The notes under the pieces are model-generated. The model searched no databases. It saw only the letters and a program-made list of their open reading frames with translations, and had not been told where the DNA came from. Of a stretch of DNA of 44,008 nt, positions 3,425 to 39,415 are shown piece after piece (the stretch's first letter is position 1; each line of letters starts with the position of its first letter). Position numbers and translations under genes: made by a program. The stretch lies in the sequence record SRR31156797_2579; one strand, written 5' to 3'.

Positions 3425-3518
3425 GAAGATTTTCCCATAAATTTATTTTGTGCTAAAAAAACACCACCTAGCGGGTGGTTTATATTTCGCACATTCGTGC
3501 TCAATTGGCTAAAGCCAT

Positions 3519-3545: not shown

Positions 3546-3572
3546 AAAATATATTTAGGATATACTTAAAAT

Positions 3573-4805
3573 TTAATCATCGTCTTCATCATTGTCTTCA
3601 TCATCGTTGTCGTCTTGACCTTTATTATCTTTATGGTCATTATCTTTATCTTTACTATTTCCCTTACCCTGATTATTGTCTTTATTATTTACATCGTTTT
3701 TATTGTCATCATGGTCTTGGTCAGCATCTTGATCATCATCTAAATCTTGGTCATCATCGTCTTCATCTGCATCGTCTTCATCATCATGACCCTTGCCGTT
3801 ATCATGGTCTTCATCTTTACCCTCATGATCTTTGCCTTCACCACAGTCGTCATCATCGTCATCGTAGCTGTCCTTGACTTGCTCCTTAACCTCTTCATAA
3901 GCGTCCTTGACTTCTTCCATGTCATCTTTATTTTCTTCGGCCTGAATCATGTTTTGATATGCTGCTTGGATTGCATCCTCATCGCCAGATTCTTTTGCAG
4001 CCTTATATTCCTCCTGTGCCAGCTTAAAGGCATCTTTTGCGTCAAAGAAATTATCTTTTGATGTCAAAAAGGCTTTAGTTACCATTGTTGTAACAACCTC
4101 TTTTTCCACCTTCTCCAGAAGCTTTTGCATATCCTCATCTGTTGCATCATCGTCCAGCATGATTTCGATGGAGAGAACTACCTCTTCCTGAACTTCTGTC
4201 ATTTGATCTAGAAGCTCATCAACTACCTCTTCATCTGCTTCTCCAGAATTATCTTCAGCAATAATATTGGCTTCTCCCAGCAGTTTGATGCTCTTTTCAA
4301 CTAATTCCTGAGCTAATTCTTCATTATCACTTTCCTGCATTATTTGAGCTTCCAGAATTCTTCTGTTGGCATACTTAACCATTAGCTCTACTCTGTTTGT
4401 TTCGTCCACAGTCAGTGAAATTCTAATGCTTTCAATCAACAGCTTGATTGGATACAAATAAGAATCAGGTGTAATGCTGATAATCACATCATTTGTGATT
4501 TGCGGAGTAGGTTCAGGTGTAGCGGTAGGCTCTGGTGTTGATTCTGGTGTAACTTGGGGCTGATCAGTATTTTCTGGTGTAGTAGCAGACTCTGCTGTTG
4601 ATTCAGCACTTGTATCTGGTGTAGCAGTTGGCTCTGTACTCACTTCTGGAGTTACCTCAAGAGTAGTCGTTTCTGGGCTAACTTCTGGAGTTACCTCAGG
4701 TGTAACTTGGGGATCAGCTGTAGTTGTTGTATCTGCAAATGCTGTAACCTGCACGATTAACATTAATACTACCAGCATAAATACTACTTTTTTTGAATGT
4801 TTCAT
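3573..4805 (-). CDS. Secreted DUF5667-like protein with Pro/Thr/Glu linker and Asp-rich tail
   Basis: Signal peptide ending AFA; PQVTPE/TPE repeats; ITPDSYLYPIKLLIESIRISLT...YANRRILEA resembles DUF5667; D/N/K/H low-complexity C-terminus. Confidence 0.75.
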   Translation of the reverse strand: MKHSKKVVFMLVVLMLIVQVTAFADTTTTADPQVTPEVTPEVSPETTTLEVTPEVSTEPTATPDTSAESTAESATTPENTDQPQVTPESTPEPTATPEPTPQITNDVIISITPDSYLYPIKLLIESIRISLTVDETNRVELMVKYANRRILEAQIMQESDNEELAQELVEKSIKLLGEANIIAEDNSGEADEEVVDELLDQMTEVQEEVVLSIEIMLDDDATDEDMQKLLEKVEKEVVTTMVTKAFLTSKDNFFDAKDAFKLAQEEYKAAKESGDEDAIQAAYQNMIQAEENKDDMEEVKDAYEEVKEQVKDSYDDDDDDCGEGKDHEGKDEDHDNGKGHDDEDDADEDDDDQDLDDDQDADQDHDDNKNDVNNKDNNQGKGNSKDKDNDHKDNKGQDDNDDEDNDEDDD

Positions 4806-4834
4806 TAATGTACCCTTTCTTTACTTTCATTAGT

Positions 4835-5938
4835 CTAGTTATTATCTTTATCTTTTTGTTTATCCTTTTCCTTATCCTTTTGGACATTATCATTACTATT
4901 TGCATTATCATCTTTATCATTGGTATCTTTTTTATCAATGTTATTATCTTTTTTATCTGTATCATCATCTACAGTCTCGTCATTACTATATTCATCGCTA
5001 TTATCGTCATCTTCATCTTTATCACTGGCATTATCGTTTTCTTCACTTTTATCTTTGTTATTGCCATTGCCTTGACTCATGTCATTTGCTTTATCGTTTT
5101 TATTATCATCAGATGTTATGGCTGTATCTGTATCATCAGTATTATTGCCGTCTTCATTTACTGTTTCCTGATTATCAAATGGCTTATCCTTCTTATCCTT
5201 ATCATTATTTCCTTTATTGTTGTCTTCATTGTTTTCGATTGAGACAAGTAATTCCTGGACAGATTTATTTAACAGCTCATCAATGGAAGTGTCATCACTA
5301 GAAACTTCTTTATATTTCTCAATAAGATTCAGCTTGCCGGCTGTTGTGCATTTTATCTTTGCCTTTTCAATGGTTTCATCATCTACGATTTTAACCTGCA
5401 CTTTTGCCTTTACCTGTACATCGCATAGTGTATCTTCCACGACTTTTTCTGCATTTATCTTTATATTATAGGTTCTGTTATTTCTACTGCTGTTGACTGC
5501 CACAAAGATTGTTTTCTCGTCATATTGGTTCAAATAGCCATCTGTCTTTGCCTGAAGCACTATCATCTCAATAGCCTGTTCATAATCCATGTTCTTTACT
5601 TTAATTTGATTAAGGATTAATTCGCCGTCACTGTTTATTCCCTTTGCGGATATAACATCATTAAAAATATTCATTTTTAGCTCAATACTTGGATTTATAT
5701 CCAGACTGACGTAGCTTTTTGGGGTATTGTATGCGTACACCATTCCTATAACAAACATAACTAATATTATGGCAGCTGATGCAATCATAATTCTTAAAGA
5801 TTTATGACGCTTTATGCTGTGACCAGTATATATCTCTTGACCTATTATATAGTCTTTATTTGGAATGTTAATGAAAACACCATTTTCCTGCAATGCAACT
5901 GCTTTATTGTTGTTTGTCTTTATAATTACTGCTTTCAT
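4835..5938 (-). CDS. rsgI: Anti-sigma-I factor, RsgI family
   Basis: RsgI_N-like N-terminus (AVALQENGVF...IGQEI), one TM helix, YVSLDINPSIEL conserved Asn-Pro site; start overlaps sigI stop. Confidence 0.88.
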   Translation of the reverse strand: MKAVIIKTNNNKAVALQENGVFINIPNKDYIIGQEIYTGHSIKRHKSLRIMIASAAIILVMFVIGMVYAYNTPKSYVSLDINPSIELKMNIFNDVISAKGINSDGELILNQIKVKNMDYEQAIEMIVLQAKTDGYLNQYDEKTIFVAVNSSRNNRTYNIKINAEKVVEDTLCDVQVKAKVQVKIVDDETIEKAKIKCTTAGKLNLIEKYKEVSSDDTSIDELLNKSVQELLVSIENNEDNNKGNNDKDKKDKPFDNQETVNEDGNNTDDTDTAITSDDNKNDKANDMSQGNGNNKDKSEENDNASDKDEDDDNSDEYSNDETVDDDTDKKDNNIDKKDTNDKDDNANSNDNVQKDKEKDKQKDKDNN

Positions 5939-6654
5939 TAATGTTTTCCTCCTTTCATTAATGGTATATATTCTCTGAGATATATGTAATCACCTTTTAG
6001 TATTATTGTGGCTGCTATTATATACTTTCGGTGACGTTCTAATAATTTTCGGGGTATCCTTAGATTTTCTTTAATTTTTTTTATTGGTATTCGTTTATTT
6101 TTCTGCATCTTAATAAATATATCAGGATTTGAAGCAATGAATTCTACGACACTGGCACATGCAGCTTTTGTTTTCTTTGCCTTTGGAGAAGTAGAGACCA
6201 ATTCCTCGAATTCTATGCCGTACAAATTCAATTCTACAATTAGGAATTCAATTTCCTGCTTTAGCGGATTATTATATAAGCAGTCATCATCAGATACATT
6301 TTCATATTGTGATTGCTCTGCTTCAGTCAAACTACTGTATGGAGTTTCTTTGTTCCTTGACTCTTTTCTGATGAAATCAATTATTCGACGTCTGATGACC
6401 CAATTGCTAAAAGAGAGAAATTGACCTTTTTGTGAATCATAGGACTTGATAGCTTCATTAAATCCTAAAAGAGCGATGGACAACTCTTCGCTATCTTTTG
6501 ATATCTGTCGCTTGCATACCTTTGACGCACATGACTTGATAAAGGGAATGTATTCGACAATGAAGTCATTAATATCTTCATTGCCGCTTTGTATGAGTAT
6601 CACTCTCTGTGATATATTGTTTGGTTTTTTTCTATTGTTGTTTTCTTCTTTCAC
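5938..6654 (-). CDS. sigI: RNA polymerase sigma-I factor
   Basis: YIPFI, SIALLGFNEAI, FLSFS..VIRRRIID, RKLLERHRKYII signature; GTG start. Confidence 0.92.
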   Translation of the reverse strand: MKEENNNRKKPNNISQRVILIQSGNEDINDFIVEYIPFIKSCASKVCKRQISKDSEELSIALLGFNEAIKSYDSQKGQFLSFSNWVIRRRIIDFIRKESRNKETPYSSLTEAEQSQYENVSDDDCLYNNPLKQEIEFLIVELNLYGIEFEELVSTSPKAKKTKAACASVVEFIASNPDIFIKMQKNKRIPIKKIKENLRIPRKLLERHRKYIIAATIILKGDYIYLREYIPLMKGGKH

Positions 6655-7696: not shown

Positions 7697-8695
7697 ATGA
7701 AGAAGTTACTGTTATTATTGCTGATTTTCACTTTGTTATTTAGTGGATGTAAAATGCTCCTGCCAGATGAATACAAGAAGCCTCAGGAGCTGCTGCTAAA
7801 TTATCCTACTGATGCACTTCCCTTTCCTGATGATGCCTTTATATTTTCTCAAGAAGAAAAACAGGGAGAAATTATCGTATGGTACGGAATAAAGCACAAG
7901 GACAAGAACGAAACTCTGGCATTCTATATTAATTATATAAACAATAATAATATCATGGCAGATGTTGAACAGGACTACACAGAATACTTCATATCCTGCA
8001 CAGTAGATAATAATGATTTTGATATCAGAATACAAGACCCAACTGAAATCCAGTCAATAGTATTCGAAAGCGTAACAAAGGCAAAGGTCACATTCTTAAA
8101 AGATGATAATGAACAAATTAACAATTCAAGTCAAGTACAAGACAATATAGTATCTACCGAGTCTACAGCAATCATAGCAGATAGTCCTCTCCAAGAAACT
8201 GCATATATGTATTCAACTCCTGCTCCTACAGCAGAACCTACTCCCACACCAGAACCTACAGCTGAACCTACTCCACAGCAGACATTACAGACAAAGACTG
8301 AAAATAATAAAAATCCTACAGCAACGCCTTTTAATACAGCTGGCAGAGCAATGACCAGAGAGGCATTCGTAGATTTGCTTACAGAGGATACATGGGTTTA
8401 TGTCTTCAGTGTAGATGGACCCAGCGAAATGCCAGAACTGGGTTATAAGGATATTACGCCAAGTCAAAATGAAACATTCATTATAGTCTTTGGTTCAACT
8501 AACGCTAGAATTATTTGTTCGGATATTAATACCAAGGGTATTATTAGGGAAGATGAGTATCAGTTTGGTCTGGATAATTCTAGAGCAATGATGTACATTG
8601 AGACAGTTGAAGTTGGGGATGGAACAGAGTATTATTTATATCATTTCTGCTACATTAATCAGGATGGATACTTAATTCACAGTCTGAAATTGTGA
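7697..8695 (+). CDS. Hypothetical lipoprotein with Pro/Thr linker
   Basis: MKK + hydrophobic stretch + LFSGC lipobox; PTAEPTPTPE repeats; GAGGAG RBS. Confidence 0.75.
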   Translation: MKKLLLLLLIFTLLFSGCKMLLPDEYKKPQELLLNYPTDALPFPDDAFIFSQEEKQGEIIVWYGIKHKDKNETLAFYINYINNNNIMADVEQDYTEYFISCTVDNNDFDIRIQDPTEIQSIVFESVTKAKVTFLKDDNEQINNSSQVQDNIVSTESTAIIADSPLQETAYMYSTPAPTAEPTPTPEPTAEPTPQQTLQTKTENNKNPTATPFNTAGRAMTREAFVDLLTEDTWVYVFSVDGPSEMPELGYKDITPSQNETFIIVFGSTNARIICSDINTKGIIREDEYQFGLDNSRAMMYIETVEVGDGTEYYLYHFCYINQDGYLIHSLKL

Positions 8696-10695: not shown

Positions 10696-11115
10696 TCTAA
10701 GTCCCTAAATAACAGGACTTATCCTTTCTTATTTGATTATTATCTTTTCTTCATTCTGTATAGATTATTATTCATTAATAAGTTTTTGGAGATAAAAAAA
10801 AAGTATTCATGTCAATTTTTTGATAATAATTATTTCATTAAGAATTCCATCTTTATTTATATCGTTTATTGACGTATTAAATATTAATTTGCGCTTATTT
10901 AAAAATACAACAGCATTAGTTGGAAAGTGACTAATTTATCAATTAAGATTAAAAAACAAGATAAATATGTATAAACATTAAAAAACACTTGAATAATCTT
11001 AGCTTTAGTCAGATAATAAAAATATAATTATAAAAAATTTCGGATTATACCAATGCCCTTGACGATTAGGCAGGTTTATCCGACTTAGTTAGCCAATTCT
11101 CCAAATATAATTAAT

Positions 11116-11418
11116 GCAAAACGACCTGTCATGAAAATGATGGGTTGTTTTGCGTGATTTTTGTTTCACAAAAATCTATTGGACAAAAGCATTATTCTGC
11201 TTTAGCAAAATGATGCGAAAGTCACGACGCTCTAGAGAGATGCGTCTAGCTGACTCAGGCCGCGATAGTCCAGCAATTTGTTCACCTTGAAAAGGTGAAT
11301 TGATAGCGGTGGAGGTACTCTTAGCAATTTAAGAAAATAAGTTTAACAAATTCATCACGTAGAATTAAATCTATTGGACGATAGCATAATTTACTATAGT
11401 AAAATAATGCGAAAGTCA
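11116..11418 (+). repeat. Composite copy of the modular hairpin-repeat family
   Basis: Consecutive stem-loops. Modules A-B (11156-11224, partial repeat 11367-11418) match the 26.8 kb array; 11217-11309 matches the reverse complement of about 31727-31820. Confidence 0.8.
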
Positions 11419-17303: not shown

Positions 17304-18362
17304 ATGAAAAAGATAATAATTTTAATTATATCATTAGTTGTGGTAGGAGTAATAGCTTTGTCTCTGATAAATGCTCCTATTACAATTTCCAGCAATACTT
17401 TTGCTCTAGATACACTAGTTGAAATAAAGATATATGATAAAAATGCTTTCAATGAAAACAAGCTAAAAAGCCTGACTGATGAGAGTTTTTCACTAATACG
17501 TGATTTGGAGGATACACTTAGCCTGTACAAAGATGGCAGCGATATCTACAATCTGATGATTAATGCTGGAAGCGAACCTATTCAAGTAGCTGATATTACA
17601 TATGAAATAGTAGAGGATTCTTTCTATTTCTCTTATTTAACTAATGGACTTTTTGATATTACTTCAGGACCTTTGATTGATTTATGGGCAATCGATCCAC
17701 CCAATGGCCATATCCCAACAGAAGAGGAGTTATCAGAGGTTCTGCCTCTTATAGATTACAGTAATATCTCCTTAATGGAGAATAATGAAATACTCTTAAA
17801 TAACGATAATATGATTGTTAATCTAGGTGCAATTGCAAAGGGTGCAATAGCAGATGAAGTAAAAAAATACTTATTAGAGCAAAACGTAAAATCAGCCATA
17901 ATAAATCTAGGCGGAAATGTACTGACTATCGGAAACAAAATTGACGGTTCTTATTTTCATGTAGGTATACAAAATCCATTTGATGATAGAAATTATTACA
18001 TTATGAATATTCCAATAAATGATATGGCAGTTGTAACCTCTGGGGATTATGAGAGATACTTTGAGGTTGACGGCATTAGGTATCATCACATACTGGATAC
18101 ATCAACTGGTTATCCTGCGGATAATGAAATCAAGCAGGTGACAATAGTCGCTCCTACATCTATTATGGCAGATGGATTGTCTACATCTGTTCTCTTGATG
18201 GGACTACAAGAGGGAATAGCCATAGTAGAGGGACTGGATGATGTGGAGGCAATATTTATTACCAAGGACAAGGAAATCTACATAACCAAAGGTCTGCAAA
18301 GTGGCTATGAATTATCTGAAGATTTTGATGATAGCTTTACTATTATTGATAGTTTGAATTAG
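17304..18362 (+). CDS. apbE: FAD:protein FMN transferase (ApbE family)
   Basis: FDITSGPL, NLGAIAKG, INLGGN, VVTSGDYERYF, YHHILD, ADGLST. Confidence 0.93.
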   Translation: MKKIIILIISLVVVGVIALSLINAPITISSNTFALDTLVEIKIYDKNAFNENKLKSLTDESFSLIRDLEDTLSLYKDGSDIYNLMINAGSEPIQVADITYEIVEDSFYFSYLTNGLFDITSGPLIDLWAIDPPNGHIPTEEELSEVLPLIDYSNISLMENNEILLNNDNMIVNLGAIAKGAIADEVKKYLLEQNVKSAIINLGGNVLTIGNKIDGSYFHVGIQNPFDDRNYYIMNIPINDMAVVTSGDYERYFEVDGIRYHHILDTSTGYPADNEIKQVTIVAPTSIMADGLSTSVLLMGLQEGIAIVEGLDDVEAIFITKDKEIYITKGLQSGYELSEDFDDSFTIIDSLN

Positions 18363-18412
18363 GGTATTTCACTTATACTTTGCAGTAATTGATGATATAA
18401 CAAAGTATATTT

Positions 18413-18931
18413 ATGAATAATAAATTATTAACAATCATTAAAAGGAATAGTGCAAATATGAAAAAAAGAGAAGTACCGCAAGCTGCAATAGAAAGAAACA
18501 AAGCATGGATAAAAGCTGTCTCTGAATCTTTGGGCAAGCAAAATGACAAGAAACTATCTCGCTGTATTATGAAAGCAGCCGGTAAAGAATGTGCCATTCA
18601 AATGCACGAAATCATACACGGACATTTGGAGAAGAAACCCCAATCTGTAGAAGAAATGGTTAAAGCTATCAACATTCGCAGAAAAGAAGTATTAAAAGCT
18701 GATACTTTTTGGGAGTTAAAAGATAATAAAGCTGCATTTAGACTAAATGAGTGTGGCTGTGATATAGTTCAGGCGGGACTTGCAACACCAAATCCTACAT
18801 TCTGTTTATGTTCCGCAGGTGTTTTTGAAAATCTTTTTGCGCCGTATCATAATGGAAATGTACGTGCTGAAATCGAAAAATCTATTGGTAACGGTGATAA
18901 ATACTGCCAATTTACAGTCTACTTTGAATAA
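18413..18931 (+). CDS. Cys-rich hypothetical protein (DUF6144/V4R-like)
   Basis: GKEC, CGC, FCLCSAG, SIGNGDKYCQF pattern; true start may be 18458. Confidence 0.6.
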   Translation: MNNKLLTIIKRNSANMKKREVPQAAIERNKAWIKAVSESLGKQNDKKLSRCIMKAAGKECAIQMHEIIHGHLEKKPQSVEEMVKAINIRRKEVLKADTFWELKDNKAAFRLNECGCDIVQAGLATPNPTFCLCSAGVFENLFAPYHNGNVRAEIEKSIGNGDKYCQFTVYFE

Positions 18932-18967
18932 TATTAATGTAAATATAATATAGACTTATGATATTAT

Positions 18968-19540
18968 TCATTTACTAAACGATTTTAACTTCCATTCTCT
19001 AGCTAGTATAGAATAAAATAACCTGCTAACGTATTTATTATTCATATAAAAATAATCTCTGAATGTACCCTCATATACAAAGCCGCATTTATCGATTACA
19101 CCTTTTGATGCTATATTACTTTCTTTATGACTAATCTGAACTCGGTGAAAATTGACCTCATCAAAGCAAAACTTAAGTACACAATTTACTGCTTCTGTCA
19201 TATAGCCTTTTCTATGAAAATCACTTCCCAAGCAATATTCTATTTCACAGCATTCATTCTTTGTACTTACGAAAAATAGTGCTATTTGTCCGATGCAAAT
19301 ATCAGATTCTTTCTCTATAATAGCCCACCTGTAATAATCTTTATTACTATAGCTTGAAATATATTTATCAAGCAAAGGCTTTAACTCATCCTCAGTTTTA
19401 TATGTTGGCTCTGAATACATAGATTGTATCTTTTCATCACTAATCCAGTATTTCAGCATATCATTAGTGTCACTATATTGAAATTGACGCAATAGCAGTC
19501 TATCTGTTTGTTTACATATCGTTCCAATATTATTAACCAT
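18968..19540 (-). CDS. RimJ/RimL-type GNAT N-acetyltransferase
   Basis: TDRLLLRQF, EIEYCLG..FHRKGYMTEA, NIASKGVIDKCGFVYEG. Confidence 0.9.
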   Translation of the reverse strand: MVNNIGTICKQTDRLLLRQFQYSDTNDMLKYWISDEKIQSMYSEPTYKTEDELKPLLDKYISSYSNKDYYRWAIIEKESDICIGQIALFFVSTKNECCEIEYCLGSDFHRKGYMTEAVNCVLKFCFDEVNFHRVQISHKESNIASKGVIDKCGFVYEGTFRDYFYMNNKYVSRLFYSILAREWKLKSFSK

Positions 19541-19756
19541 GGATGCCCCCTAAAAAATTATAAAGTTAGCAAATGATAACATGAACCAAATAGAAAGTCA
19601 AATGAAATATTTACAATAAATATAATATAAAACTATATTAAAAATCTAAAACATACACACCCCGTATAATAACTATTAAATTAACATTTCAAGTTTTGTT
19701 TTCATATACTACTTCTAGCATTATTATTTAAATTTTGATAATTTTCGGAGGTAATT

Positions 19757-20005
19757 ATGAACTCTCAGATAACACTTTCTCAACTTTCAATTGGCGAGAA
19801 AGCCAGCATAGTAAAGCTAATATCTTCCGGTGAAAACAAGAGAAGAATGCTGGATCTAGGTCTAGTCAATGATACCATAATTGAAGCCTTGTATGTCAGT
19901 CCTTCAAAGGATCCAAAGGCATACTATTTCAAAGGCTGTGTATTCGCACTGCGTTCAGAGGACGCTAATCAGATAATAGTAAAGCCTCTCTGTTTGGGGG
20001 TCTAA
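19757..20005 (+). CDS. feoA: Ferrous iron transport protein A
   Basis: RRMLDLGLV, SPSKDP, ALRSEDA; upstream of feoB. Confidence 0.92.
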   Translation: MNSQITLSQLSIGEKASIVKLISSGENKRRMLDLGLVNDTIIEALYVSPSKDPKAYYFKGCVFALRSEDANQIIVKPLCLGV

Positions 20006-20007
20006 TT

Positions 20008-22152
20008 ATGAAAAGCAAAGACAATATAAACAGACAAAAGATGCTGGATGATTCCTATTTAACAAAGTATGAGGATGAATATGTAGTTGCTCTTGCAGGC
20101 AATCCCAATGTAGGTAAAAGCACAGTATTTAATTCACTGACAGGATTAAAGCAGCATACAGGCAACTGGCCCGGCAAAACAGTCACAAATGCCAGAGGTC
20201 ATTATAAACACAAGAACAAAGATTACATTTTGATAGATTTACCTGGAACATATTCAATGATGTCATCCTCTGTAGAGGAAGAGGTAGCAAGAGATTTCAT
20301 GTGCTTTGGCAATCCTGATGCGACTATTGTAGTAACAGATGCCACATGCTTAGAGAGAAACCTGAATCTGGTGCTCCAAACAATTGAAATGACCAGAAAC
20401 GTTATTGTATGTGTTAACTTAATAGATGAAGCTTCCAATAAAGGCATTTCAATTGATATTAAGCAGTTATCAAATCTATTGGGAGTACCCGTTGTGGCAA
20501 CTAATGCACGAAAAAAAAGAGGGCTAAAAAATCTGACAGATACAGTCCACAGCGTTGCTACACAAACAATAAAACCAAATCCATATAATATAAAGTATAA
20601 TCCAGTAATAGAAACTGCCATTGAGATAGTACTGCCTCGAGTAAAGTCTCTGATAAATTATGACCTTAACCCACGATTTGCTGCGCTGAAACTATTGGAA
20701 GGTGAAGATACTATTCTCACATCAATAGATGATTATTTGGGAATAAAGATGAGAGACGATGAAACTCTGCAATTATCCCTTAAGCAGGCGAACGAGTACC
20801 TAATCGGCAATGGCTATGATAAAGATATTTTTCTGGAAAAGATAGTATCTCAGCTATATAAAATATCAGAAGAACTCTGCAAAGAGACTGTCAGCTTCCA
20901 AAAAAATGAATACAATACAGTATCAAGAAAGATTGATAAAGTACTGACATCAAAAGTATTTGGCATACCTATAATGATTGCGCTGCTAGGATTGGTCTTT
21001 TGGCTGACTATTACAGGAGCTAACTATCCCTCACAGATGCTGGCAGGATTCTTTGAAAATATACAGTACCATCTGACGGATTTCTTCCACTATATCAATG
21101 CTCCCGACTGGCTCCATGGCATGCTGGTATTGGGAATATATCGTACTCTGGCGTGGGTTGTCTCCGTCATGCTTCCGCCTATGGCAATATTCTTTCCTCT
21201 GTTTACTCTCCTGGAGGATTTAGGGTATCTGCCTCGTGTTGCGTTTAACCTAGATAATTATTTCAAGAAATCCTGTGCTCACGGCAAGCAGGCACTGTGT
21301 ATGTGTATGGGCTTTGGCTGTAATGCAGCTGGGGTTATCGGCTGTCGGATAATTGATTCTCCTAGAGAGAGATTGATTGCCATAATTACTAATAACTTCG
21401 TACCCTGCAATGGCCGCTTTCCAACTCTGATTGCAATATCCACCATCTTTATAGGCGGTATGGTGGCGAGTGCCTATCAGTCATTGGTATCTACAGTGGC
21501 TATGGTTTGCGTTATTATCCTAGGGGTTGTGATGACCCTCTTTATCTCCAAGCTCCTATCCAAGACCATTCTAAAGGGATTGCCTTCCTCATTTCAGCTG
21601 GAGCTTCCTCCATATCGGAAACCTCAGGTAGGCAAGGTAATCGTCCGCTCTATATTTGACAGAACATTATTTGTACTTGGCAGAGCAATAATCGTAGCCG
21701 CACCTGCTGGGCTGATCATCTGGATAATGGCAAATATTACGGTAGGTGATATGTCCATACTTGCCCACTGCGCCGATTTCCTAGACCCATTTGCCAATCT
21801 AATCGGCATGGATGGTATAATACTGATGGCATTTATTCTAGGGCTTCCAGCGAATGAAATAGTAATCCCTATTATCATAATGAGCTATATGGCTACTGGC
21901 TCTATGCTGGAGCTGGAGAGCCTTTCAGAGCTAAAAACTCTGCTGGTAAATAACGGCTGGACTTGGCTGACAGCTATCAATGTAATGCTGTTTTCGCTGA
22001 TGCATTTCCCATGTGCCACAAGCCTGCTGACCATAAAGAAAGAGACCCAGAGCCTGAAATGGACGGCAGTGTCCTTTGCTGTGCCTACTATGACTGGGCT
22101 GGTGTTTTGCTTTGTAGTTACTCAGGTTGTTAGGCTTTTGGGGTTGGTGTAG
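20008..22152 (+). CDS. feoB: Ferrous iron transport protein B
   Basis: GNPNVGKS, GNWPGKTV, DLPG, NLID, GFGCN, PCNGRFP, ELPPYR. Confidence 0.96.
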   Translation: MKSKDNINRQKMLDDSYLTKYEDEYVVALAGNPNVGKSTVFNSLTGLKQHTGNWPGKTVTNARGHYKHKNKDYILIDLPGTYSMMSSSVEEEVARDFMCFGNPDATIVVTDATCLERNLNLVLQTIEMTRNVIVCVNLIDEASNKGISIDIKQLSNLLGVPVVATNARKKRGLKNLTDTVHSVATQTIKPNPYNIKYNPVIETAIEIVLPRVKSLINYDLNPRFAALKLLEGEDTILTSIDDYLGIKMRDDETLQLSLKQANEYLIGNGYDKDIFLEKIVSQLYKISEELCKETVSFQKNEYNTVSRKIDKVLTSKVFGIPIMIALLGLVFWLTITGANYPSQMLAGFFENIQYHLTDFFHYINAPDWLHGMLVLGIYRTLAWVVSVMLPPMAIFFPLFTLLEDLGYLPRVAFNLDNYFKKSCAHGKQALCMCMGFGCNAAGVIGCRIIDSPRERLIAIITNNFVPCNGRFPTLIAISTIFIGGMVASAYQSLVSTVAMVCVIILGVVMTLFISKLLSKTILKGLPSSFQLELPPYRKPQVGKVIVRSIFDRTLFVLGRAIIVAAPAGLIIWIMANITVGDMSILAHCADFLDPFANLIGMDGIILMAFILGLPANEIVIPIIIMSYMATGSMLELESLSELKTLLVNNGWTWLTAINVMLFSLMHFPCATSLLTIKKETQSLKWTAVSFAVPTMTGLVFCFVVTQVVRLLGLV

Positions 22153-22215
22153 GATAACTTGCTCTGCACTCTGCAACCTGTAGAGCAATCTACTAACCCA
22201 GCGAAAGCATAATTA

Positions 22216-22244
22216 GGTGATTCCAGAGATGGGGTCACTTTTTT
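22216..22244 (+). terminator. Intrinsic terminator after feoB
   Basis: GTGATTCCA-GAGA-TGGGGTCAC followed by T6. Confidence 0.7.
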
Positions 22245-22300
22245 CATCATAAAATATTCTCATCTTTTACTGCTCTTAAGAAAACATTCCCACCCCCCCC

Positions 22301-22331
22301 TTGACCCTAACGTTACGTTATAGTTTATAAT
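22301..22331 (+). promoter_or_regulatory. MerR-type promoter/operator
   Basis: TTGACC-19 bp-TATAAT with dyad TAACGT-T-ACGTTA (22308-22320) in the over-long spacer. Confidence 0.92.
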
Positions 22332-22337
22332 AAAGCC

Positions 22338-23075
22338 ATGAAAGAATTAATTACAATAAATCAGTTGGCAAAGTTATCAGGTATCACGGTACGGACCTTG
22401 CACTACTATGATGAGGTAAATCTGCTAAAGCCTGCATCTATCGGCGAAAACGGCTACAGACAATATTCCCAAAAGGACATAATGAGACTGCAGGAAATTA
22501 TGACCCTAAAGGAATTGGGCTTTAGCCTAAAGGATATAAAAACTCTGATAGATACTGATGCCCTAAGCCGACAGGATGCCTTTGCGATGCAGAGAGACAT
22601 TCTGGTCAGAAAGCGTCAGAGGCTTACAGGGATAATTAATTCTTTGAATAAACTAATGGAGGATAATGAAATGAGTTTTAATCAATTCGATATGACAGGC
22701 ATTGAGGATGCAAAGAATAAGTATAAAGACGAGGCCGAAAAGCGCTGGGGGCATACTGATGCCTACAAAGAATCTGCCCGCAAGACAAACAAGTACACCA
22801 AGGCTGACTGGGCGGCAATAGAAAGTGAAGCAACAGCAATCTACGATAAGTTTATTGCCAATCTAAAGTCAGGTATACCTACTGAGGATAATGCGGATAT
22901 TGTCAGGCAGTGGCAGGAGCATATCACAAAGAACTACTACAAATGTACCGGTGAAATACTATCTGGCTTAGGTCAGATGTATGTGGCTGATGAACGATTT
23001 ACAAAGAATATTGATAAGAGGTGTCAGGGACTGGCTGAGTATATGGCAGAGAGTATTAAGAAATACTGCGAATAA
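22338..23075 (+). CDS. MerR family regulator with TipAS antibiotic-recognition domain (TipA/Mta-like)
   Basis: GITVRTLHYYDEVNLLKP...GYRQY HTH; EAEKRWG.T.AYKES, GLGQMYVADERF. Confidence 0.92.
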   Translation: MKELITINQLAKLSGITVRTLHYYDEVNLLKPASIGENGYRQYSQKDIMRLQEIMTLKELGFSLKDIKTLIDTDALSRQDAFAMQRDILVRKRQRLTGIINSLNKLMEDNEMSFNQFDMTGIEDAKNKYKDEAEKRWGHTDAYKESARKTNKYTKADWAAIESEATAIYDKFIANLKSGIPTEDNADIVRQWQEHITKNYYKCTGEILSGLGQMYVADERFTKNIDKRCQGLAEYMAESIKKYCE

Positions 23076-23087
23076 TCAAACTGTATT

Positions 23088-23110
23088 AGGGAGCTTTGCT
23101 CCCTTTTTTT
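23088..23110 (+). terminator. Intrinsic terminator
   Basis: AGGGAGC-TTT-GCTCCCT followed by a T tract. Confidence 0.75.
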
Positions 23111-23290
23111 CTATTGATAACAAGTTACCTAAGAACACTGTCCACCATATACAAAACACATATTAAATGATATAATAACTCTGCTTGGCATAACAAAGGA
23201 AAAATAATAATATTATTAGAAATATCTATAATAATCTAAAACAAAACTTATAATAATATATATGATTGCAATAGAGAGGTCAATTCCTAT

Positions 23291-24889
23291 ATGACTCAAA
23301 AAAAGAGAAGCTTCGTCCAAGGAGCAACCATATTAGCTGTCACATCTATGCTGGTAAAGGTCATAGGCATCCTGTATAAACTTCCACTATTTAATATGAT
23401 AGGTTCCGAGGGTGCAGGTCTGTACCTTATGGCATATCCATTTTATACATATCTATTGATGTTATCAACAGCGGGACTGCCACCTACTATATCAAAGTTA
23501 GTAGCTCAAAAGATATCCAACGGTGACAGAATGGGTGCGAAGAAGGTATTCACCACTGCTCTTACACTTATGGCTATTCTAGGAATTGTCTTTTCCATCA
23601 CATTAATTGCAATGAGCTCCTATATATCACAGCAATTTATAGGGGATCCACTATCAAGACTTCCTATTATATGCCTGGCTCCAGCTATTGCACTGGTTTC
23701 AATTATGTCTGCTGTCAGAGGCTATTTCCAAGGTATGCAGAATATGGTACCAACAGCTGTATCACAATTGGCTGAACAAATAGGTAAAGTTATATTCGGA
23801 TTGTATTTAGCACGTCTTATGATGCCGCGTGGTATAGAATACGCTGCCGCAGGTGCGACACTTGGAATAGTGATATCTGAGTTTATTGGATTAATAGTAA
23901 TAATTATCTTCTATATTGCAAAAGCACCAAAAATTAAAATAAAGAAAAGTGCAACAGAACCAACCAGTGCTATTCTGCGTCAGATTGGACAGCTGGCATT
24001 CCCAATATTAATGGGTGCTTCCATTATGCCGTTAGTAAACCTTATAGATACAGGAATAGTTGTAAATCAATTGACAAAAATTGGATATGAGCTGGAGACT
24101 GCCCGTTCCCTCTTTGGTATTGCTGCTGGGTTCGCTAACACACTACTAAATGTTCCCGGAGCTATTTCTCTGGCATTTTGCGTATCAATTGTGCCTGCAG
24201 TATCTGCCTCCATCGCACGAGGTGACAAGGCAAACCTAGAACGAAATATATCTATGGGGTACAGACTATCTATGCTAGTTGGCGTACCGTCAGGTGTAGG
24301 ATTTTTCGTGTTGTCAGAACCAATAATGAACCTGCTCTACGGAAACAAGCTGTCTCCAGAGGGTTTAGTAATCAGCGGTAATGCACTGCAGCTAATCGCA
24401 TTAGGCGTAATATTCCTGTCCATACTGCAGACTTTCAATGGTGTTCTTCAAGGCATGGGCAAAGTATACATTCCGGTAATCGCTCTAGCATCAGGTGCAG
24501 TCACCAAGATAATCCTGTGCTATGTACTGGTAGGCACTCCTGAAATCAATATCTACGGAACACCTATCTCTACATTTGCATGTTACTTCGTAGCATCTAT
24601 AATCGATATAATAATGATCAAGAAGCTGACAGGAATAAAGCTGGAAAAGCGAGCTTTCAGCATTCGTTTAATATTTGCCAGTCTCTTAATGGGCGGAGCA
24701 GCATGGGCAGCCCATTCATTGCTATCTGGTGTAATTGGCTCAAAGATTGCAACAGTTGTTGCTGTGTTAGTAGGCGTTGCAGTATTTTTACTGGATTTAA
24801 TATTGTTCAAAGTCTTCCAAAAGGATGAGCTAAAATCCTTACCTGGCGGTCACAGAATGGTAAAGCTGTATAATGCAATATGGAGCTAA
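23291..24889 (+). CDS. YabM/SpoVB-like MOP-family polysaccharide/lipid II flippase
   Basis: SFVQGATIL, STAGLP..ISKLV, RGYFQG..NMVPTAVSQ..EQ; many TM helices. Confidence 0.9.
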   Translation: MTQKKRSFVQGATILAVTSMLVKVIGILYKLPLFNMIGSEGAGLYLMAYPFYTYLLMLSTAGLPPTISKLVAQKISNGDRMGAKKVFTTALTLMAILGIVFSITLIAMSSYISQQFIGDPLSRLPIICLAPAIALVSIMSAVRGYFQGMQNMVPTAVSQLAEQIGKVIFGLYLARLMMPRGIEYAAAGATLGIVISEFIGLIVIIIFYIAKAPKIKIKKSATEPTSAILRQIGQLAFPILMGASIMPLVNLIDTGIVVNQLTKIGYELETARSLFGIAAGFANTLLNVPGAISLAFCVSIVPAVSASIARGDKANLERNISMGYRLSMLVGVPSGVGFFVLSEPIMNLLYGNKLSPEGLVISGNALQLIALGVIFLSILQTFNGVLQGMGKVYIPVIALASGAVTKIILCYVLVGTPEINIYGTPISTFACYFVASIIDIIMIKKLTGIKLEKRAFSIRLIFASLLMGGAAWAAHSLLSGVIGSKIATVVAVLVGVAVFLLDLILFKVFQKDELKSLPGGHRMVKLYNAIWS

Positions 24890-24912
24890 ACAATATATAC
24901 TACTAAATTTAT

Positions 24913-24941
24913 AGGGATTGCTGTAATGAGCAATCCCTTTT
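24913..24941. terminator. Terminator hairpin between convergent genes
   Basis: AGGGATTGCT-N6-AGCAATCCCT followed by TTT. Confidence 0.65.
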
Positions 24942-24967
24942 GTGTGCAACGAATATTTATCCATTGG

Positions 24968-26560
24968 CTATTCAGTGCTTTGCAAATCTTTTATTACCTG
25001 CTGATACTCAGTCTCGTACATGTTCTTCTTCTCATCGCTTAGTGACTCAGATAATAACTGAATCAATTGAGACCTTCGAAATTCCAGCAGTACCTTGTCA
25101 TTATCATTTGCCATAAATTTCTGTCTCTCTTCTTCCACATCTATTAATTTACCATTTTCCATTCGCAATTCTCTATCTGTCACTTGCTCTAAGAAATACC
25201 TATCGTGAGAAACTACCAGCAGTGTACCATCGAATTCAGCCAGCATCTTTTCCAATGCTTCAAGCACATAAACGTCTAAATAATTAGTAGGTTCATCCAG
25301 TATCAGAATAGAGCAGCCATTGACAATCAGTTGTGCCAGCTTTACCTTACACCTTTCACCACCTGATAATACAATAAGCTTTTTGAATACATCCTGTCGC
25401 CTAATACCCAGATGACCTAATACTGTCCTCACCACATGCTGAGGTTCATTTGCACTTTCCATTATGTAATCCAGTATTGTAATATCGTCATTCATTTCAC
25501 TAATATCTTGACTGAAATATCCAAGAGTATAATTAGGTGAGACAACAGTACCCTGTACCCTATTTACAATCGCATTCAGTAACGTGGATTTACCGGAGCC
25601 ATTACAACCTGTAATTGCAATTCTTTCTCCTCTTGCAATATTTAGACTGATGTCATCCAGCACCAGATTATCACCATATGAGAATGACAACTGGTTTACC
25701 CTGATAGCAGTTTTGCTATTCATCTGTCCAGTATTTGCAACTCTCATTTTGTAGCCAATTTCCTGCTTTGGCTTTTCCTTTTTTTCAAGTCTGCCTAGAC
25801 GCTTTTTGTACTGCTTTGATACAGCACTGACAACGCCTGCCTTTTGTCTAACATCCATCCTGTGCAGTCTGGCCTCGGAATTCCCCATACGCTTTGGCGA
25901 TGATTTCATCCTAGCAGCTTTTTGAGATGTCTCTCTTGCTGCTTGCTCGAGACTATTCTTTGCCACAATATACTTTTCGTATTCCTTCTGCTGATTCTTT
26001 AGGGTCTTTTGCTTTTGCTCTTTGAAGTCATCATAATTCCCACGATAAACTGTCACGTTGCCTTCATCAATTTCCCAGATATAATTGCACACTGTGTTTA
26101 GCAATTTCCTATCGTGGCTGACCAGTAGTATCCCTCCTGCGAAATTCACCAGTTCATTTTCCAGCTTTATAATGCTTTCCTCATCCAGATTACTGCTAGG
26201 TTCGTCGCACAGCAAAATCCTTGATTTAGAGCTTAATGCCTTTGCGATTTTATGCCTCGTAATTTCACCGCCGCTTTTTGGATCGTCTGCTATACCCCAG
26301 ATTTGTTTCTGCCTATTATCAGCTATATTTTCATTTTCATCATTCAATTGTTGAATATATTGGTAGTCATGATACAGCACAGTATATCCCTCAATCGGTT
26401 CAATTCGTCCTGCTATTATATCCAGTAATGTGGATTTACCGCAGCCATTGACACCCACAATACCTACCTTATCACCTGAGTGAAGCTGAAGTGATGGAAT
26501 GTCTAAGAGTTCCTTTTCCCCGTACTCCATCCTTAGATTAAATATGTCAATTAATAAAAT
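24968..26560 (-). CDS. Ribosomal-protection-type (ARE) ABC-F ATPase, Msr/Vga/CplR-like; probable ATT start
   Basis: Two ABC cassettes (GVNGCGKST/SGGE/DEPSSNLD and GCNGSGKST/LSGGE/DEPTNYLD), no TM, linker KRMGNSEARLHRM; SD-like GGGGGTG 5 nt before ATT at 26560. Confidence 0.85.
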   Translation of the reverse strand: MLLIDIFNLRMEYGEKELLDIPSLQLHSGDKVGIVGVNGCGKSTLLDIIAGRIEPIEGYTVLYHDYQYIQQLNDENENIADNRQKQIWGIADDPKSGGEITRHKIAKALSSKSRILLCDEPSSNLDEESIIKLENELVNFAGGILLVSHDRKLLNTVCNYIWEIDEGNVTVYRGNYDDFKEQKQKTLKNQQKEYEKYIVAKNSLEQAARETSQKAARMKSSPKRMGNSEARLHRMDVRQKAGVVSAVSKQYKKRLGRLEKKEKPKQEIGYKMRVANTGQMNSKTAIRVNQLSFSYGDNLVLDDISLNIARGERIAITGCNGSGKSTLLNAIVNRVQGTVVSPNYTLGYFSQDISEMNDDITILDYIMESANEPQHVVRTVLGHLGIRRQDVFKKLIVLSGGERCKVKLAQLIVNGCSILILDEPTNYLDVYVLEALEKMLAEFDGTLLVVSHDRYFLEQVTDRELRMENGKLIDVEEERQKFMANDNDKVLLEFRRSQLIQLLSESLSDEKKNMYETEYQQVIKDLQSTE

Positions 26561-26574
26561 AAAAACACCCCCAT

Positions 26575-26745
26575 AAAAAAGAGCGTCTGAAAAAGCACAA
26601 GAACCTAGTCCCAGCACAAGAAAGTGAGGATAAATGTTTTGCTAGCTTTTGTCAGACGCACAAATAACAACCATTAATATAATGGTCAAAGTTACTATTA
26701 ACATCTACAAAAACTACTTACGCATCCCGCTTCTTGCAACCTCCT
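26575..26745 (-). promoter_or_regulatory. Attenuator-type 5' leader of the ABC-F gene
   Basis: Stem arms 26645-26659 and 26583-26596 followed by a T6 tract just before the RBS; AGGAGG (26740-26745) and micro-uORF ATG-CGT-AAG-TAG (26714-26725). Confidence 0.7.
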
Positions 26746-26770
26746 AGATTAGAATTATTAGATTAAATAA

Positions 26771-26798
26771 AGTATAGCATATGCAAAAATGTTGTCAA
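26771..26798 (-). promoter_or_regulatory. Sigma-A promoter of the ABC-F gene
   Basis: TTGACA-16 bp-TATACT with extended TG. Confidence 0.85.
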
Positions 26799-27000
26799 GC
26801 GTGATTTCCACCCTGTGGAAATCTACTGGCGAAAGACGTATTGCGAAGCAATGCGTTAAAAGCATGATTGTTGCTTTGCAACAATCTATAGGCGATAGCA
26901 ATGTTTTGCTTGTCAAAATGTTGCGAAAGCGTGATTTCCACATAGTGAAAATCTATAGACGAAAGCATTATTTTGCTTAGCAAAATAGTGTGAAAGGGAT
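26799..27000 (+). repeat. Tandem array of three 63-68 bp double-hairpin units
   Basis: Units begin at 26803, 26866 and 26933: GATT..AATC hairpin, TAY-N3-CGAWA linker, second hairpin, RAAAG linker. Confidence 0.88.
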
Positions 27001-27181
27001 GATTGTCCCACAGCAAAAACTTAGCAGCACAAGTCCAATTGCATAGTAATATGATTAATCCTCAATTCTACTCATAGTAAATGAATTATTAACAATATTT
27101 ATTTTTAGTTGTAATTATCTCTATGTACGAATATAATTTATGATATTAGGTCTAAAATATAAAATGGAAAGGTAGCCTTAT

Positions 27182-28006
27182 ATGAAAAAACCTACTCTCC
27201 GTTACAGAATGCTAAAGGGTTTAATTAACTTTTTGATTTCTGCAATTACCAATATCAAGGTTACTGGCTATGACAGCTTCGATAAGGATACCCAGTATAT
27301 AATAGTTGGAAACCACACAGGATGGATGGATCCACTGCTGGTAATCGGTAAACTTCCAAGGCAGTATCAGGCGACGTTACTTGCAGAGATGGCTGGTGCT
27401 GTACAATCAGGCTGGGTTCAGAAGTTCATTAACCTTGGTGATTTAAGAATTATAGGCGTTGACAGAGCAAATCAAAAATCACGAATGGCAAGCCTGCGCC
27501 TAATAAACAAAGCAGTAAAAAACGGAAGCAATCTAATTATTTTCCCAGAGGGCAGAATTAATATTGATGATGATATTATGTATCCGTACTACACCGGCAG
27601 TTTCTTTTGCTCCGTACAAAATAAAGTTGCTATACTCCCTGTTTACATCAGAGGTGCACAGGAGATATATTTTCGTCGCAATATAAATATGAATTTTGGT
27701 GAACCTATACCAGTTGAAAAGGGTGAGAACATTGAGGAAGTTGCCAAAAGAACTTTTATTGCAATGCGTGATAAGGTAAAGCCTGAAGCACCTGTAAATG
27801 AACAAAAGATACGAATTCTTAATCTAACTAAATCATTCCTTGGTGGTTTAGCACCACCGCCGCCAAACGTAGGAGACATGATAGCAGACGGCAGAAAAGC
27901 ACAGACTCTGTTCAATCAGGTTAATGCGGCATCTATTGAGAAGTTTAAGCTGGATGAAGAAGCAAAGAAAAAAGTAAAACTGACAAAGAGCTACACCAAC
28001 GGATAG
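27182..28006 (+). CDS. PlsC-like lysophospholipid acyltransferase
   Basis: NHTGWMD (HX4D), VDR and IFPEGR motifs. Confidence 0.9.
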   Translation: MKKPTLRYRMLKGLINFLISAITNIKVTGYDSFDKDTQYIIVGNHTGWMDPLLVIGKLPRQYQATLLAEMAGAVQSGWVQKFINLGDLRIIGVDRANQKSRMASLRLINKAVKNGSNLIIFPEGRINIDDDIMYPYYTGSFFCSVQNKVAILPVYIRGAQEIYFRRNINMNFGEPIPVEKGENIEEVAKRTFIAMRDKVKPEAPVNEQKIRILNLTKSFLGGLAPPPPNVGDMIADGRKAQTLFNQVNAASIEKFKLDEEAKKKVKLTKSYTNG

Positions 28007-35437: not shown

Positions 35438-36199
35438 ATGTCAAAAGTAATTGCGATAGTTAACCAAAAAGGAGGAGTAGGTAAAACTACTACTTCTGTA
35501 AATCTTTGTGCATGTATTGCAACACTAGGGCACAAAGTGCTTTTAATAGATATGGATCCCCAGAGCAACTCCACCAGTGGTATCGGAATAAACAAAGCAA
35601 GAATTAAAAACAGTATATATGACGTTATCATCAATGGTACACCATTAGAGAACTGTTATATGAAAACTATGCTGGACAATTTAACAATCGTTCCATCTGC
35701 AGCTGAACTATCTGGTGCTGAAGTTGAATTAGTAACAGTTATTTCACGTGAAACAAAATTAAAAGAAGCCGTTGACGAAATTCGAGATGATTTTGAATTC
35801 GTCTTTATTGACTGTCCGCCATCTCTAGGTCTATTGACAATCAATGCACTGACAGCTTCAGATAATCTGCTGGTTCCAATCCAGTGTGAATATTACGCTA
35901 TGGAAGGTCTTGCACAATTAATAAATTCTGTTCGTCTGGTACGTCAGCATTTGAATCCATCTCTAAACTTCGAGGGTGTACTGCTTACAATGTACGACAG
36001 CAGAACAAATCTGTCTGACCAGGTTATGACTGAGGTCAAAAAACACTTTAAGGAAAAAGTGTACAAGACAGTAATTCCAAGAAATGTACGGCTGTCCGAG
36101 GCTCCATCATACGGTTTACCAATCACACTATATGACCCTGCATGTACTGGAGCAAAAGCATACCACTCACTGGCTAATGAATTCTTATCACAAAACTGA
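35438..36199 (+). CDS. soj: Chromosome partitioning ATPase Soj/ParA
   Basis: [40 protein letters not shown]. Confidence 0.97.
35740..35755. promoter_or_regulatory. Near-consensus parS site inside parA
   Basis: TATTTCACGTGAAACA (15/16), read as ISRET. Confidence 0.75.
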
Positions 36200-36263
36200 T
36201 TTAGTGAAACCACAATATAGCTTGTGGTTTTATTACTGGTTACCAATCTAGAAAGGTAAAATT

Positions 36264-37163
36264 ATGGACAATAAATCTAGAGGCTTAGGAAAGGGTTTAG
36301 ATGCACTGTTTGAATCATCTCCGGTATTTGATACACCTATTGGTGTAAAGAATGATCAAAATAATGGAGATACTGCGACTGTTTCAATGTATCTGATTGA
36401 TCCTAACCCAAATCAGCCCAGAGCAGATTTCAATAAAGACAAATTAAGTGAATTAGCAGAATCCATCAGAGAGCACGGCATACTACAGCCAATACTGCTC
36501 AAACCTGTTGGTAAGAGATACTTACTTGTTGCAGGTGAGCGTCGATTCCGTGCTGCGAAAAAATTAGGCTTGGAAGAAATCCCAGCAATTATCAAAGAAT
36601 TAGATGACGAACAGGTTGCAGCTATAGCTCTTATAGAAAACCTTCAAAGAGATAACCTGAACCCAATCGAAGAAGCGCTTGGCATCAAGTCATTAATGGA
36701 TGAATTCGGCTGGACACAGGAAGATGTGTCTATAAAAATCGGCAAAAGCAGACCAGCCATTGCAAATACATTAAGGCTGTTAAAGCTCCCGGATTTTATT
36801 GCCAACTATGTCGCTCAAGGCAGACTCACATCTGGTCACGGCAGGTGCCTAGCCAGTATCAGTAATCCTAGTCTGCAAAGAGACCTAGCCCTTCGTGCAA
36901 TGAAAGAAGAGCTGAGTGTCCGCCAGCTGGAGCAATTGGTCAAGGAAGCAAATTCCAGAAAAGAAAAGGATGAAGAGCCTCTGGATAAACCAGAGTCAAA
37001 AGCTATTCCAGAGTTTACAGAGTTCAGAGATAAACTGCAAAAGGGTTTCGGAATGAAAGTAGACATCAAAGGAAATCTCAGCAAGGGCAAGATTACCATG
37101 TCCTATTCCAGCAGAGATGAGTTGGAGAGTCTGTACGAACTAGCAAAAAAGATAAATAAATAA
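36264..37163 (+). CDS. spo0J: Chromosome partitioning protein Spo0J/ParB
   Basis: GLGKGLDAL, QPR, AGERRFRA, IENLQRDNLNPIEEA, GKSRPAIANTLRLL. Confidence 0.97.
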   Translation: MDNKSRGLGKGLDALFESSPVFDTPIGVKNDQNNGDTATVSMYLIDPNPNQPRADFNKDKLSELAESIREHGILQPILLKPVGKRYLLVAGERRFRAAKKLGLEEIPAIIKELDDEQVAAIALIENLQRDNLNPIEEALGIKSLMDEFGWTQEDVSIKIGKSRPAIANTLRLLKLPDFIANYVAQGRLTSGHGRCLASISNPSLQRDLALRAMKEELSVRQLEQLVKEANSRKEKDEEPLDKPESKAIPEFTEFRDKLQKGFGMKVDIKGNLSKGKITMSYSSRDELESLYELAKKINK

Positions 37164-37941: not shown

Positions 37942-38133
37942 TACTGATATATTTAATTGAAATGTAAAAGTCGGCAATGCAAATTGTCGGCTTATTTATT
38001 TCCATTTTTACCATGTTCGATTCAAGGCTCTACCCTCTTTCACAGAATTTTTTAAAATAGCCTTTCTAATCATTACAATAACTATAATGCTATTATCCAT
38101 ATATTAATGCAAAGTTTTTATCTCTTTTATAGA

Positions 38134-38901: not shown

Positions 38902-39415
38902 ATTTCTCTTCCTTTTTTCCTTTATATATTTTATATAATTATAGCCGATGCTTATATAAAACCAAAGTATAAAGTTATCATCTTTAAATTACACAAATGC
39001 TTACTATTTAGCTATTGCTCATTGCAGCCGTCTTTATTTTAAACAAATGTACAGTATAGAATATTTAAATCCCCTGAATGATTTTAGGTTCTTTCTGCCG
39101 TTTTTTCATGCATCTAGCCTATTATCAAATATTTTCATAAAAGAAAATGGAAATAACGCTTACCAAATTAAATGCAATAAAATATTGGAAATAGCTATAC
39201 TCCCTATTGAAATAGCACATATTATTAGTTATAATGTATATTATAACTTCGTTAAATTTTTAACCATCTTAATGTGATTAAAACAATAAATATTGTAAAT
39301 ATTACTTATTGAATATTGATTTTTTATCACAATGATATATAATACTATTAATTTAACATGCTAAAACATTAAAGAAAATATAGCAATGAAGCTGTCAAAC
39401 ACGAAAGGAAGTAAA

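Follow-up and report, generated by a model that had tools for sequence, protein, structure and literature searches.

A covarying two-hairpin intergenic repeat family in a clostridial-type spore-former

Introduction

Proteobacteria have provided most of what is known about structured intergenic repeats, which have hardly been studied in Clostridia. The proteobacterial REP and BIME elements are short, hairpin-forming and intergenic; they stand alone, head to tail or as inverted pairs, and their subfamilies keep the fold. They number tens to hundreds per genome, together with a RAYT (Y1 transposase) gene that copies typically flank. Head-to-tail, tandemly reiterated REP clusters are described in the available excerpt of a REP survey (PMC3733652), a text in which a term search returned neither "Firmicutes" nor "Clostridi". 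Excerpts of two further papers report IS200-type TnpA (Y1 transposase) as strongly represented in Clostridia (PMC6006769) and place group 1 RAYTs there too (PMC6006769, PMC5581495). Stem-loop sequence clusters, 6 for C. perfringens and 14 for C. tetani, are tabulated in the available part of PMC2267715.

Pneumococcal BOX elements are modular, with distinct terminal modules and a middle module that is tandemly repeated. In type III toxin-antitoxin systems a small structured RNA is encoded as tandem direct repeats ahead of a gene; these ToxI-like repeats are near-identical, about 35-45 nt long, and precede a ToxN-type toxin gene. CRISPR repeats are near-identical and separated by unrelated spacers, and cas genes usually accompany them. 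The uup motif is a tandem candidate structured RNA found upstream of ABC-F genes.

Here we report a repeat in a 44,008-nt stretch of DNA (SRR31156797_2579), called the window throughout. It is a low-GC chromosome segment (31-41% G+C) in which a Pfam scan found genes of a clostridial-type spore-former, among them SpoIIP, SigI/RsgI-like, ParA/ParB, GreA and LysS. The repeat resembles REP and BIME elements in its intergenic hairpins and, by analogy, in probable recognition as a folded single strand. It differs from them in having a unit of two hairpins, ~65 nt long, with a purine 4x4 internal loop; in its tag, which in REPs is GTAG (or CGTC), whereas here hairpin A is preceded on the reverse strand by GTA plus G in the first array unit only and by ATA plus G in 9 of 10 copies; and in its setting, a clostridial-type spore-former with no RAYT in the 44 kb. 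Unlike a REPIN, in which two like REPs are inverted and form one long hairpin, the sole inverted pair that we found joins different subtypes. With the stem-loop families of C. perfringens and C. tetani and the pneumococcal BOX and RUP elements, compared by description, the repeat shares the character of dispersed, foldable intergenic repeats in low-GC Gram-positives; its units are without the terminal modules of BOX.

The remaining likenesses are to tandem systems. Small tandem hairpins beside an ABC-F gene recall the uup motif, but cmscan gave no credible match, and the array lies on the other strand, upstream of the promoter predicted for the ABC-F gene. The units differ from ToxI-like repeats in being ~72% alike and 63-68 nt long, and in being followed by an acyltransferase gene, not one of ToxN/AbiQ type. 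A sequence-only reading of this DNA had held that the array is not CRISPR, and we agree: only short segments are conserved, those that vary are palindromic, and Pfam scans found no Cas family.

Unit architecture

Three head-to-tail units, U1 to U3, of 63, 67 and 68 nt, lie on the + strand within a 565-nt spacer between an ABC-F ATPase gene and an acyltransferase gene (Table 1). In each unit, hairpin A is followed by a conserved linker and then by hairpin B, which is broken by a 4x4 internal loop and ends in a short closing helix. Re-reading of the sequence bore out the coordinates and sequences that the sequence-only reading had given for these double-hairpin units. Hairpin A is, as it had stated, a 9-bp stem with a 3-nt loop, perfect in U1 and U2, with one mismatch in U3, and with 9 bp again in the copy near 11 kb. 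Hairpin B has a stem of 10-12 bp containing 2 G-U pairs in each of U1-U3, which matches the two G-T wobbles per copy noted before. The 4x4 loop reads GAWA on its 5' side and GAAA on its 3' side (AAAA in U1); in U1 a 10-bp stem surrounds a GCGAAGC loop, and the internal loop is GAAA/AAAA. The closing helix was correctly described as GC/GC in U1 and U2 and GAC/GTC in the 11-kb copies, and in U3 it is weak, with one pair only.

The family consensus is ~65 nt long, with an invariant hairpin A foot (GATT/AATC), the linker CTATWGR and a closing helix of 2-4 bp. The linkers of U1, U2 and U3 match ATCTAYWGRCRAWAG at 0 mismatches, which nothing else in the window does; at up to 2 mismatches the motif has 10 window sites, against a shuffle mean of 3.14. 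U2 and U3 are 72% alike and are both still paired, and TRF did not report the array. A coding reading was rejected, since these unit lengths would break any reading frame. To the right of U3, the possible decayed start of a fourth unit attains a score reached by 5-18 of 300 shuffles, which is weak support, and a left-hand remnant is unsupported, its score being reached by 63-218 of 300. Apparent resemblances to DnaA-box, RAT and attC sequences are not kept across copies.

Contigs of run X1 in Logan end at 26889 and 26925, inside the array around U2, so the repeat breaks short-read unitigs. Among public runs X1 is the one DNA run found to contain the stretch, and no RNA run is listed as containing it. 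A comparison of runs X1 and X2 with 26740-27060 at 80% likeness returned these two X1 contigs, no further copies, and nothing from X2.

Table 1. Coordinates of the repeat units and associated features in the window
Feature	Position	Strand	Details
Long hairpin abutting C1, 17-19 bp, three G-T pairs on the + strand	11112-11155	+	Terminator-like, T-rich tail
C1, solitary full copy	11152-11224	+	R1 84.5 bits, E 7e-17
Hairpin A of C1	11156-11176	+	9 bp
G+C-richer 134-nt stretch between C1 and C2, own hairpins	11225-11358	+	No Rfam match beyond chance level at E<=10
C2, linker and hairpin B, hairpin A missing	11359-11417	+	Covariance model 46.6 bits, E 3.6e-7
ABC-F ATPase gene	24968-26617	-	
Predicted strong promoter, ABC-F gene	26771-26798	-	11/12, TG-extended, TTGACA-16-TATACT; consensus match only
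Array of three units	26799-26996	+	
Unit U1, 63 nt	26799-26861	+	R1 54.4 bits, E 2.9e-10
Hairpin A of U1	26803-26823	+	Arms 9/9 complementary, 3-nt loop
Unit U2, 67 nt	26862-26928	+	R1 87.7 bits
Hairpin A of U2	26866-26886	+	Arms 9/9 complementary, 3-nt loop
Hairpin B of U2	26898-26924	+	GAUA/GAAA loop
Unit U3, 68 nt	26929-26996	+	R1 71.7 bits
Hairpin A of U3	26933-26953	+	One C.A mismatch on the + strand
Hairpin B of U3	26965-26991	+	
Possible decayed start of fourth unit (TGATTGT..., pairing lost)	26997-27025	+	Weak; z 1.9-3.7
Predicted promoter, acyltransferase gene at 27182	27109-27137	+	10/12; consensus match only
Acyltransferase gene	27182-28006	+	PF01553 Acyltransferase (Pfam scan)

Further copies in the window

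A covariance model built from the four full window copies (R1) finds exactly five places across the 44 kb at E<=0.002. Its further matches are the reverse strands of these five and two weak ones left unconfirmed by R2, a model built from all 10 copies: 38060-38110(-) and 39080-39159(-) have E 0.05-0.07 with R1, whereas with R2 the first has E 0.72 and the second is absent, and neither is counted. A hairpin-A-like site at 24916-24935 proved to be an ordinary terminator.

The two copies outside the array lie 15 kb from it, upstream of an ORF at 11561 and of the best promoter-like site of that gene, itself a consensus match only. C1 is complete, with hairpin A, hairpin B and the GAC/GTC closing helix. 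C2, a fifth window copy that adds to those of the sequence-only reading, lacks hairpin A and is 85% identical to C1 across 53 nt. The locus as a whole is composite, comprising a long hairpin, C1, the 134-nt insert and C2. The insert forms two hairpins without defects; it also has a CCGC...GCGG helix enclosing GATAG/GATAG, which is reminiscent of the hairpin B loop.

The long hairpin may or may not be part of the repeat element. It has a sub-threshold psRNA14 match (34.6 bits against a gathering score of 60), and no + strand gene lies upstream of it. A weak promoter-like site at 10989-11017 suggests that it could be the end of a small transcript.

Relatives and distribution

Five more copies occur on four contigs (L010, L012, L014 and L015) of one metagenome, LQAI01. 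The pattern used to scan metagenome contigs fixed only unpaired and stem-foot bases and did not require pairing. It matched 7 stretches, of which four are true members, all from LQAI01 (R1 E<=1.3e-7), and the other three are not; the fifth LQAI01 copy, beside one of the pattern matches, was found through the covariance model alone. Because the pattern is blind to pairing, the new but paired inner stems of the four pattern-matched copies are independent evidence for the fold. Hairpin A was given 11 N in this pattern, whereas 13 are needed for the window units; the pattern therefore leaves the window itself unmatched and reaches only relatives with a 19-nt hairpin A, so the metagenome yield is a lower bound.

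Searches elsewhere gave no members. A pattern for the linker and hairpin B, which recovers 4 of the 5 window copies, had raw matches in 2 of 401 genomes of a phylum sample and in 4 viral stretches, with a best R1 E of 0.085, and 0 true members among those genomes and viral contigs. R2 found none in 150 genomes of one order or in 150 of one class, where 33 candidates were scored per genome under stricter filters and with lower sensitivity. A blastn search of plasmids gave no match. Searches by order and family found no close relative of the source organism, the best LysS identity being 63%; in the 401-genome sample the best identities were 47% for SpoIIP and 60% for full-length LysS, and an ABC-F search of genome contigs gave only partial matches of 23% and 50%. 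Within the collections searched, the distribution of the family is, on these sequence matches, narrow and lineage-restricted.

Additionally, the sequence-only reading recognised no family here, and Rfam 15 gave none on either strand for the window loci or their homologues. Over the whole window its sole match at gathering score is a tRNA; for both strands of 26600-27200, cmscan with a cut-off of E 10 returned two chance-level snoRNA matches only, and the four homologous loci gave 0 matches at E<=0.1. A word search of the literature, blind to sequence, found no description of this unit.

Covariation and strand preference

The stems of the repeat covary. In a 10-copy alignment (A3) that was fitted to the model and is hence biased towards structure, standard pairs occupy 94.7% of 209 cells (198), compared with 78.5% in shuffles, and 14 of 24 pairs have changes on both sides (34 cells). 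In none of 500 shuffles is the percentage of paired cells, the covariation score or the number of double changes as high as observed, and pairing falls to 30-39% when the partner is slid by 1-3 columns. Covariation extends to every one of the three helices; the helix closing the 4x4 loop, of 2-4 bp, takes part as well, its middle pair being GC, AU or CG. The compensatory changes preserve the fold of one strand, and we conclude that the units form a real, statistically supported and apparently undescribed structured repeat family.

These results uphold the covariation predicted by the sequence-only reading and its argument for selection on a single-strand fold, as copies of another organism carry new stems that are still paired. 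Its statement that linkers are conserved while stems covary needs amendment. Linkers are conserved and inner stems vary, but the stem feet are as invariant as the linker, and mean column identity is 0.82 in unpaired (n=17) and 0.80 in paired columns (n=35). Stem feet, linker and internal loop make up what is invariant, and only inner stem positions vary.

Pairing might also be maintained in a palindrome that duplicates and has no function, if templated (snap-back) correction of quasi-palindromes at replication restored the stems. Hairpin A fits this mechanism, its stems being perfectly Watson-Crick in most copies as would be predicted. However, hairpin B retains G-U pairs, there is covariation in the closing helix across the 4x4 loop, unpaired motifs are invariant between two organisms, and the copies are dispersed; this explanation is already disfavoured, and we consider it highly improbable.

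The strand on which the fold is read is less sharply defined. As RNA, the + strand of the array folds at -84.8 kcal/mol (z -6.78; 0 of 200 shuffles as good) and the - strand at -66.9 kcal/mol (z -4.05), whereas under DNA parameters the values are -41.9 and -39.0 kcal/mol, a difference of 2.9 kcal/mol. With RNA parameters the element strand gives the better fold in all ten copies, although in four the margin is <=1.6 kcal/mol. The stem cells of the 10-copy alignment comprise 184 Watson-Crick, 14 G-U, 4 A-C and 7 other combinations; of the 209 cells, 198 are paired when the element strand is read and 188 would be on the reverse complement, and the G-U cells are clustered in two columns and thus reflect few independent events. 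The earlier proposal that the + strand is read therefore stands as to its direction, with 14 G-U against 4 A-C cells, but the preference is modest, DNA parameters barely separate the strands, and it does not discriminate RNA from single-stranded DNA.

Much of this is what a structured RNA would show. Such a module, made from the element strand, would bind a protein (less likely a ligand) through the GAWA/GAAA loop and linker, its tandem copies multiplying sites so as to regulate in cis as a leader, to stabilise RNA or to act as a sponge for protein. In its favour are the covariation of all three helices, the excess of G-U over A-C cells, the better folding of the element strand under RNA parameters, the invariance of the unpaired purines, and pairing strongly kept between neighbours that are 72% identical. 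We treat this protein-binding RNA module as the main rival to the reading that we favour, and as possible but somewhat doubtful in the light of the genomic setting.

Setting and behaviour of the copies

The predicted ABC-F promoter reads leftwards and ends 1 nt left of U1, and beyond the last recognisable unit, 84 nt to its right, comes the promoter-like site of the acyltransferase gene. The array is thus between two predicted divergent promoters and, if these are real, outside both predicted 5' UTRs. Under these predictions neither neighbour would transcribe the array, a consensus search found no + strand promoter-like site ahead of it, and the units are followed by no terminator, which argues against an RNA module, as does the lack of an Rfam match.

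All ten copies are intergenic and foldable, and their six loci take varied forms: the head-to-tail array, a full and a truncated copy around an insert, an inverted pair, and three solitary copies. At both window loci the copies have the orientation of the gene downstream. The solitary copy of L012 is likewise sense, with a PhoU gene on one side and a response-regulator gene on the other. These three loci directed at a downstream gene fit the RNA module, but the downstream genes (acyltransferase, TSP3-repeat protein, response regulator) share no function. Against it, too, the copy of L015 is antisense to two co-directional genes, lying between the 3' end of secA and the next ORF, and that of L010 is convergent with a periplasmic-binding-protein gene. 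The ORF after secA has no Pfam hit and resembles, in its motifs, the start of prfB.

The pair on L014 is adjacent and inverted (1426-1490(+) and 1499-1563(-)), and its members belong to different subtypes with unlike B stems. L014 1406-1504 is 93.9% identical to L010 4-102 over 99 nt, and the two stand beside unrelated genes, so a recent duplication or transposition is indicated; such a pair at unrelated loci would be unusual for a regulatory RNA. An informal reading of the loci showed no target-site duplication or terminal inverted repeat. The copies behave as dispersed repeats rather than as a leader RNA. On two of these contigs genes are each split into two frames (the AIM24-family gene at L014 535-1220 and the response-regulator gene at L012 2-701), and these are frameshifts or assembly errors of low-coverage metagenome contigs.

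The unit multiplies at the DNA level, through tandem duplication, dispersal to unrelated intergenic sites in either orientation, an inverted pair and truncated copies. The units might be derived, structured ends of a larger mobile element, of IS200/IS605 type or similar (a MITE or palindrome-associated element), with the coding part elsewhere in the genome. IS200/IS605-family transposases read a hairpin together with a conserved flanking single-strand motif, an architecture that the units fit, and the 11-kb locus is composite. IS200-type TnpA is also well represented in Clostridia in the excerpt cited above (PMC6006769). However, a Pfam scan of 36 window ORFs showed no such gene, no left/right-end asymmetry or cleavage motif is definable from 10 copies, and elements of this kind do not usually take the form of head-to-tail tandem units. 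We regard this origin as unlikely.

A proposed REP/BIME-like reading

We favour, giving it about an even chance, the reading that this is a lineage-restricted REP/BIME-like structured intergenic repeat, read as a single strand by a putative protein. By analogy, the units are probably a clostridial counterpart of REP-type elements. In this proposal the fold and the invariant unpaired bases would be recognised by a protein, either a single-stranded-DNA nuclease of HUH/Y1 type that mobilises copies or a hairpin-binding host protein, and only copies that keep the fold would persist or spread. Effects on neighbouring genes would be secondary, arising from a cruciform or hairpin between divergent promoters or from hairpins in co-transcribed copies.

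The density and behaviour of the copies support this REP-like reading, with 5 copies at 2 loci in 44 kb and 5 in LQAI01, in mixed orientation and including a 94% identical pair. Where the sequence-only reading had left a REP-like single-stranded DNA element and a non-coding RNA both in play, the context now leans towards the former. Other observations run against it. Among the 36 window ORFs scanned there is no transposase, whether Y1/HUH or another, and the suggestion of a RAYT or TnpA(Y1) gene flanked by copies thus found nothing in the window. The known copy number is small (5 in 44 kb). Additionally, fully paired neighbours only ~72% alike, G-U cells exceeding A-C cells (14 against 4) and a purine-rich loop are usual in functional RNAs.

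Membership in REP proper is not supported. The argument that the reverse complement of hairpin A begins RTAG is weak, as the reverse strand reads GTAG in 1 of 10 copies and ATAG in 9 of 10, and the 36 ORFs include no Y1 transposase. More tentatively, and with less confidence than in the REP-like reading, we suggest that the unit could be an undescribed protein-recognition module composed of the GATT/AATC foot, the CUAUWGR linker and the loop-E-like GAWA/GAAA 4x4 loop. It would be read either on RNA, as multivalent platforms or sponges, or on single-stranded DNA by a clostridial HUH/Y1 enzyme.

If the single-stranded DNA/HUH case were true, Bacillota would gain a first REP-RAYT-type system acting on a substrate of two hairpins, and a Y1/HUH enzyme or an RNA-binding protein that reads the unit would have a new substrate architecture. 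Otherwise, the family is still useful for annotation and a cause of breaks in assemblies. A genome-wide census and a search for the reader protein are directly feasible, given its clear consensus, strong covariation and usable covariance model.

Other features of the window

Beside the array, the sequence at 26588-26563 forms a hairpin that, with its T-run, is terminator-like and falls within the first 55 nt of the listed ABC-F ORF (GTG at 26617). Its position suggests that the ABC-F gene has a leader of ~150-200 nt with an attenuator, and a later true start. Such a leader resembles that of antibiotic-responsive ABC-F genes.

Gene orientation and GC skew switch at ~18000-27000: to the left most genes are on the - strand and the skew is negative, whereas to the right most are on the + strand and it is positive. 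The cumulative skew is lowest at 26-30 kb, a pattern that is origin-like; the window contains neither dnaA nor dnaN, and ParA/ParB lie at 35438-37163.

At 8219-8282, a 332-aa ORF without a Pfam family contains an in-frame, Pro/Thr/Glu-rich tandem repeat of 18/30 nt. The region 411-6654 (-) encodes a BlaR1-like sensor fused to DUF6034, together with a BlaI-type repressor, and a SigI/RsgI-like sigma/anti-sigma pair adjoins these genes.
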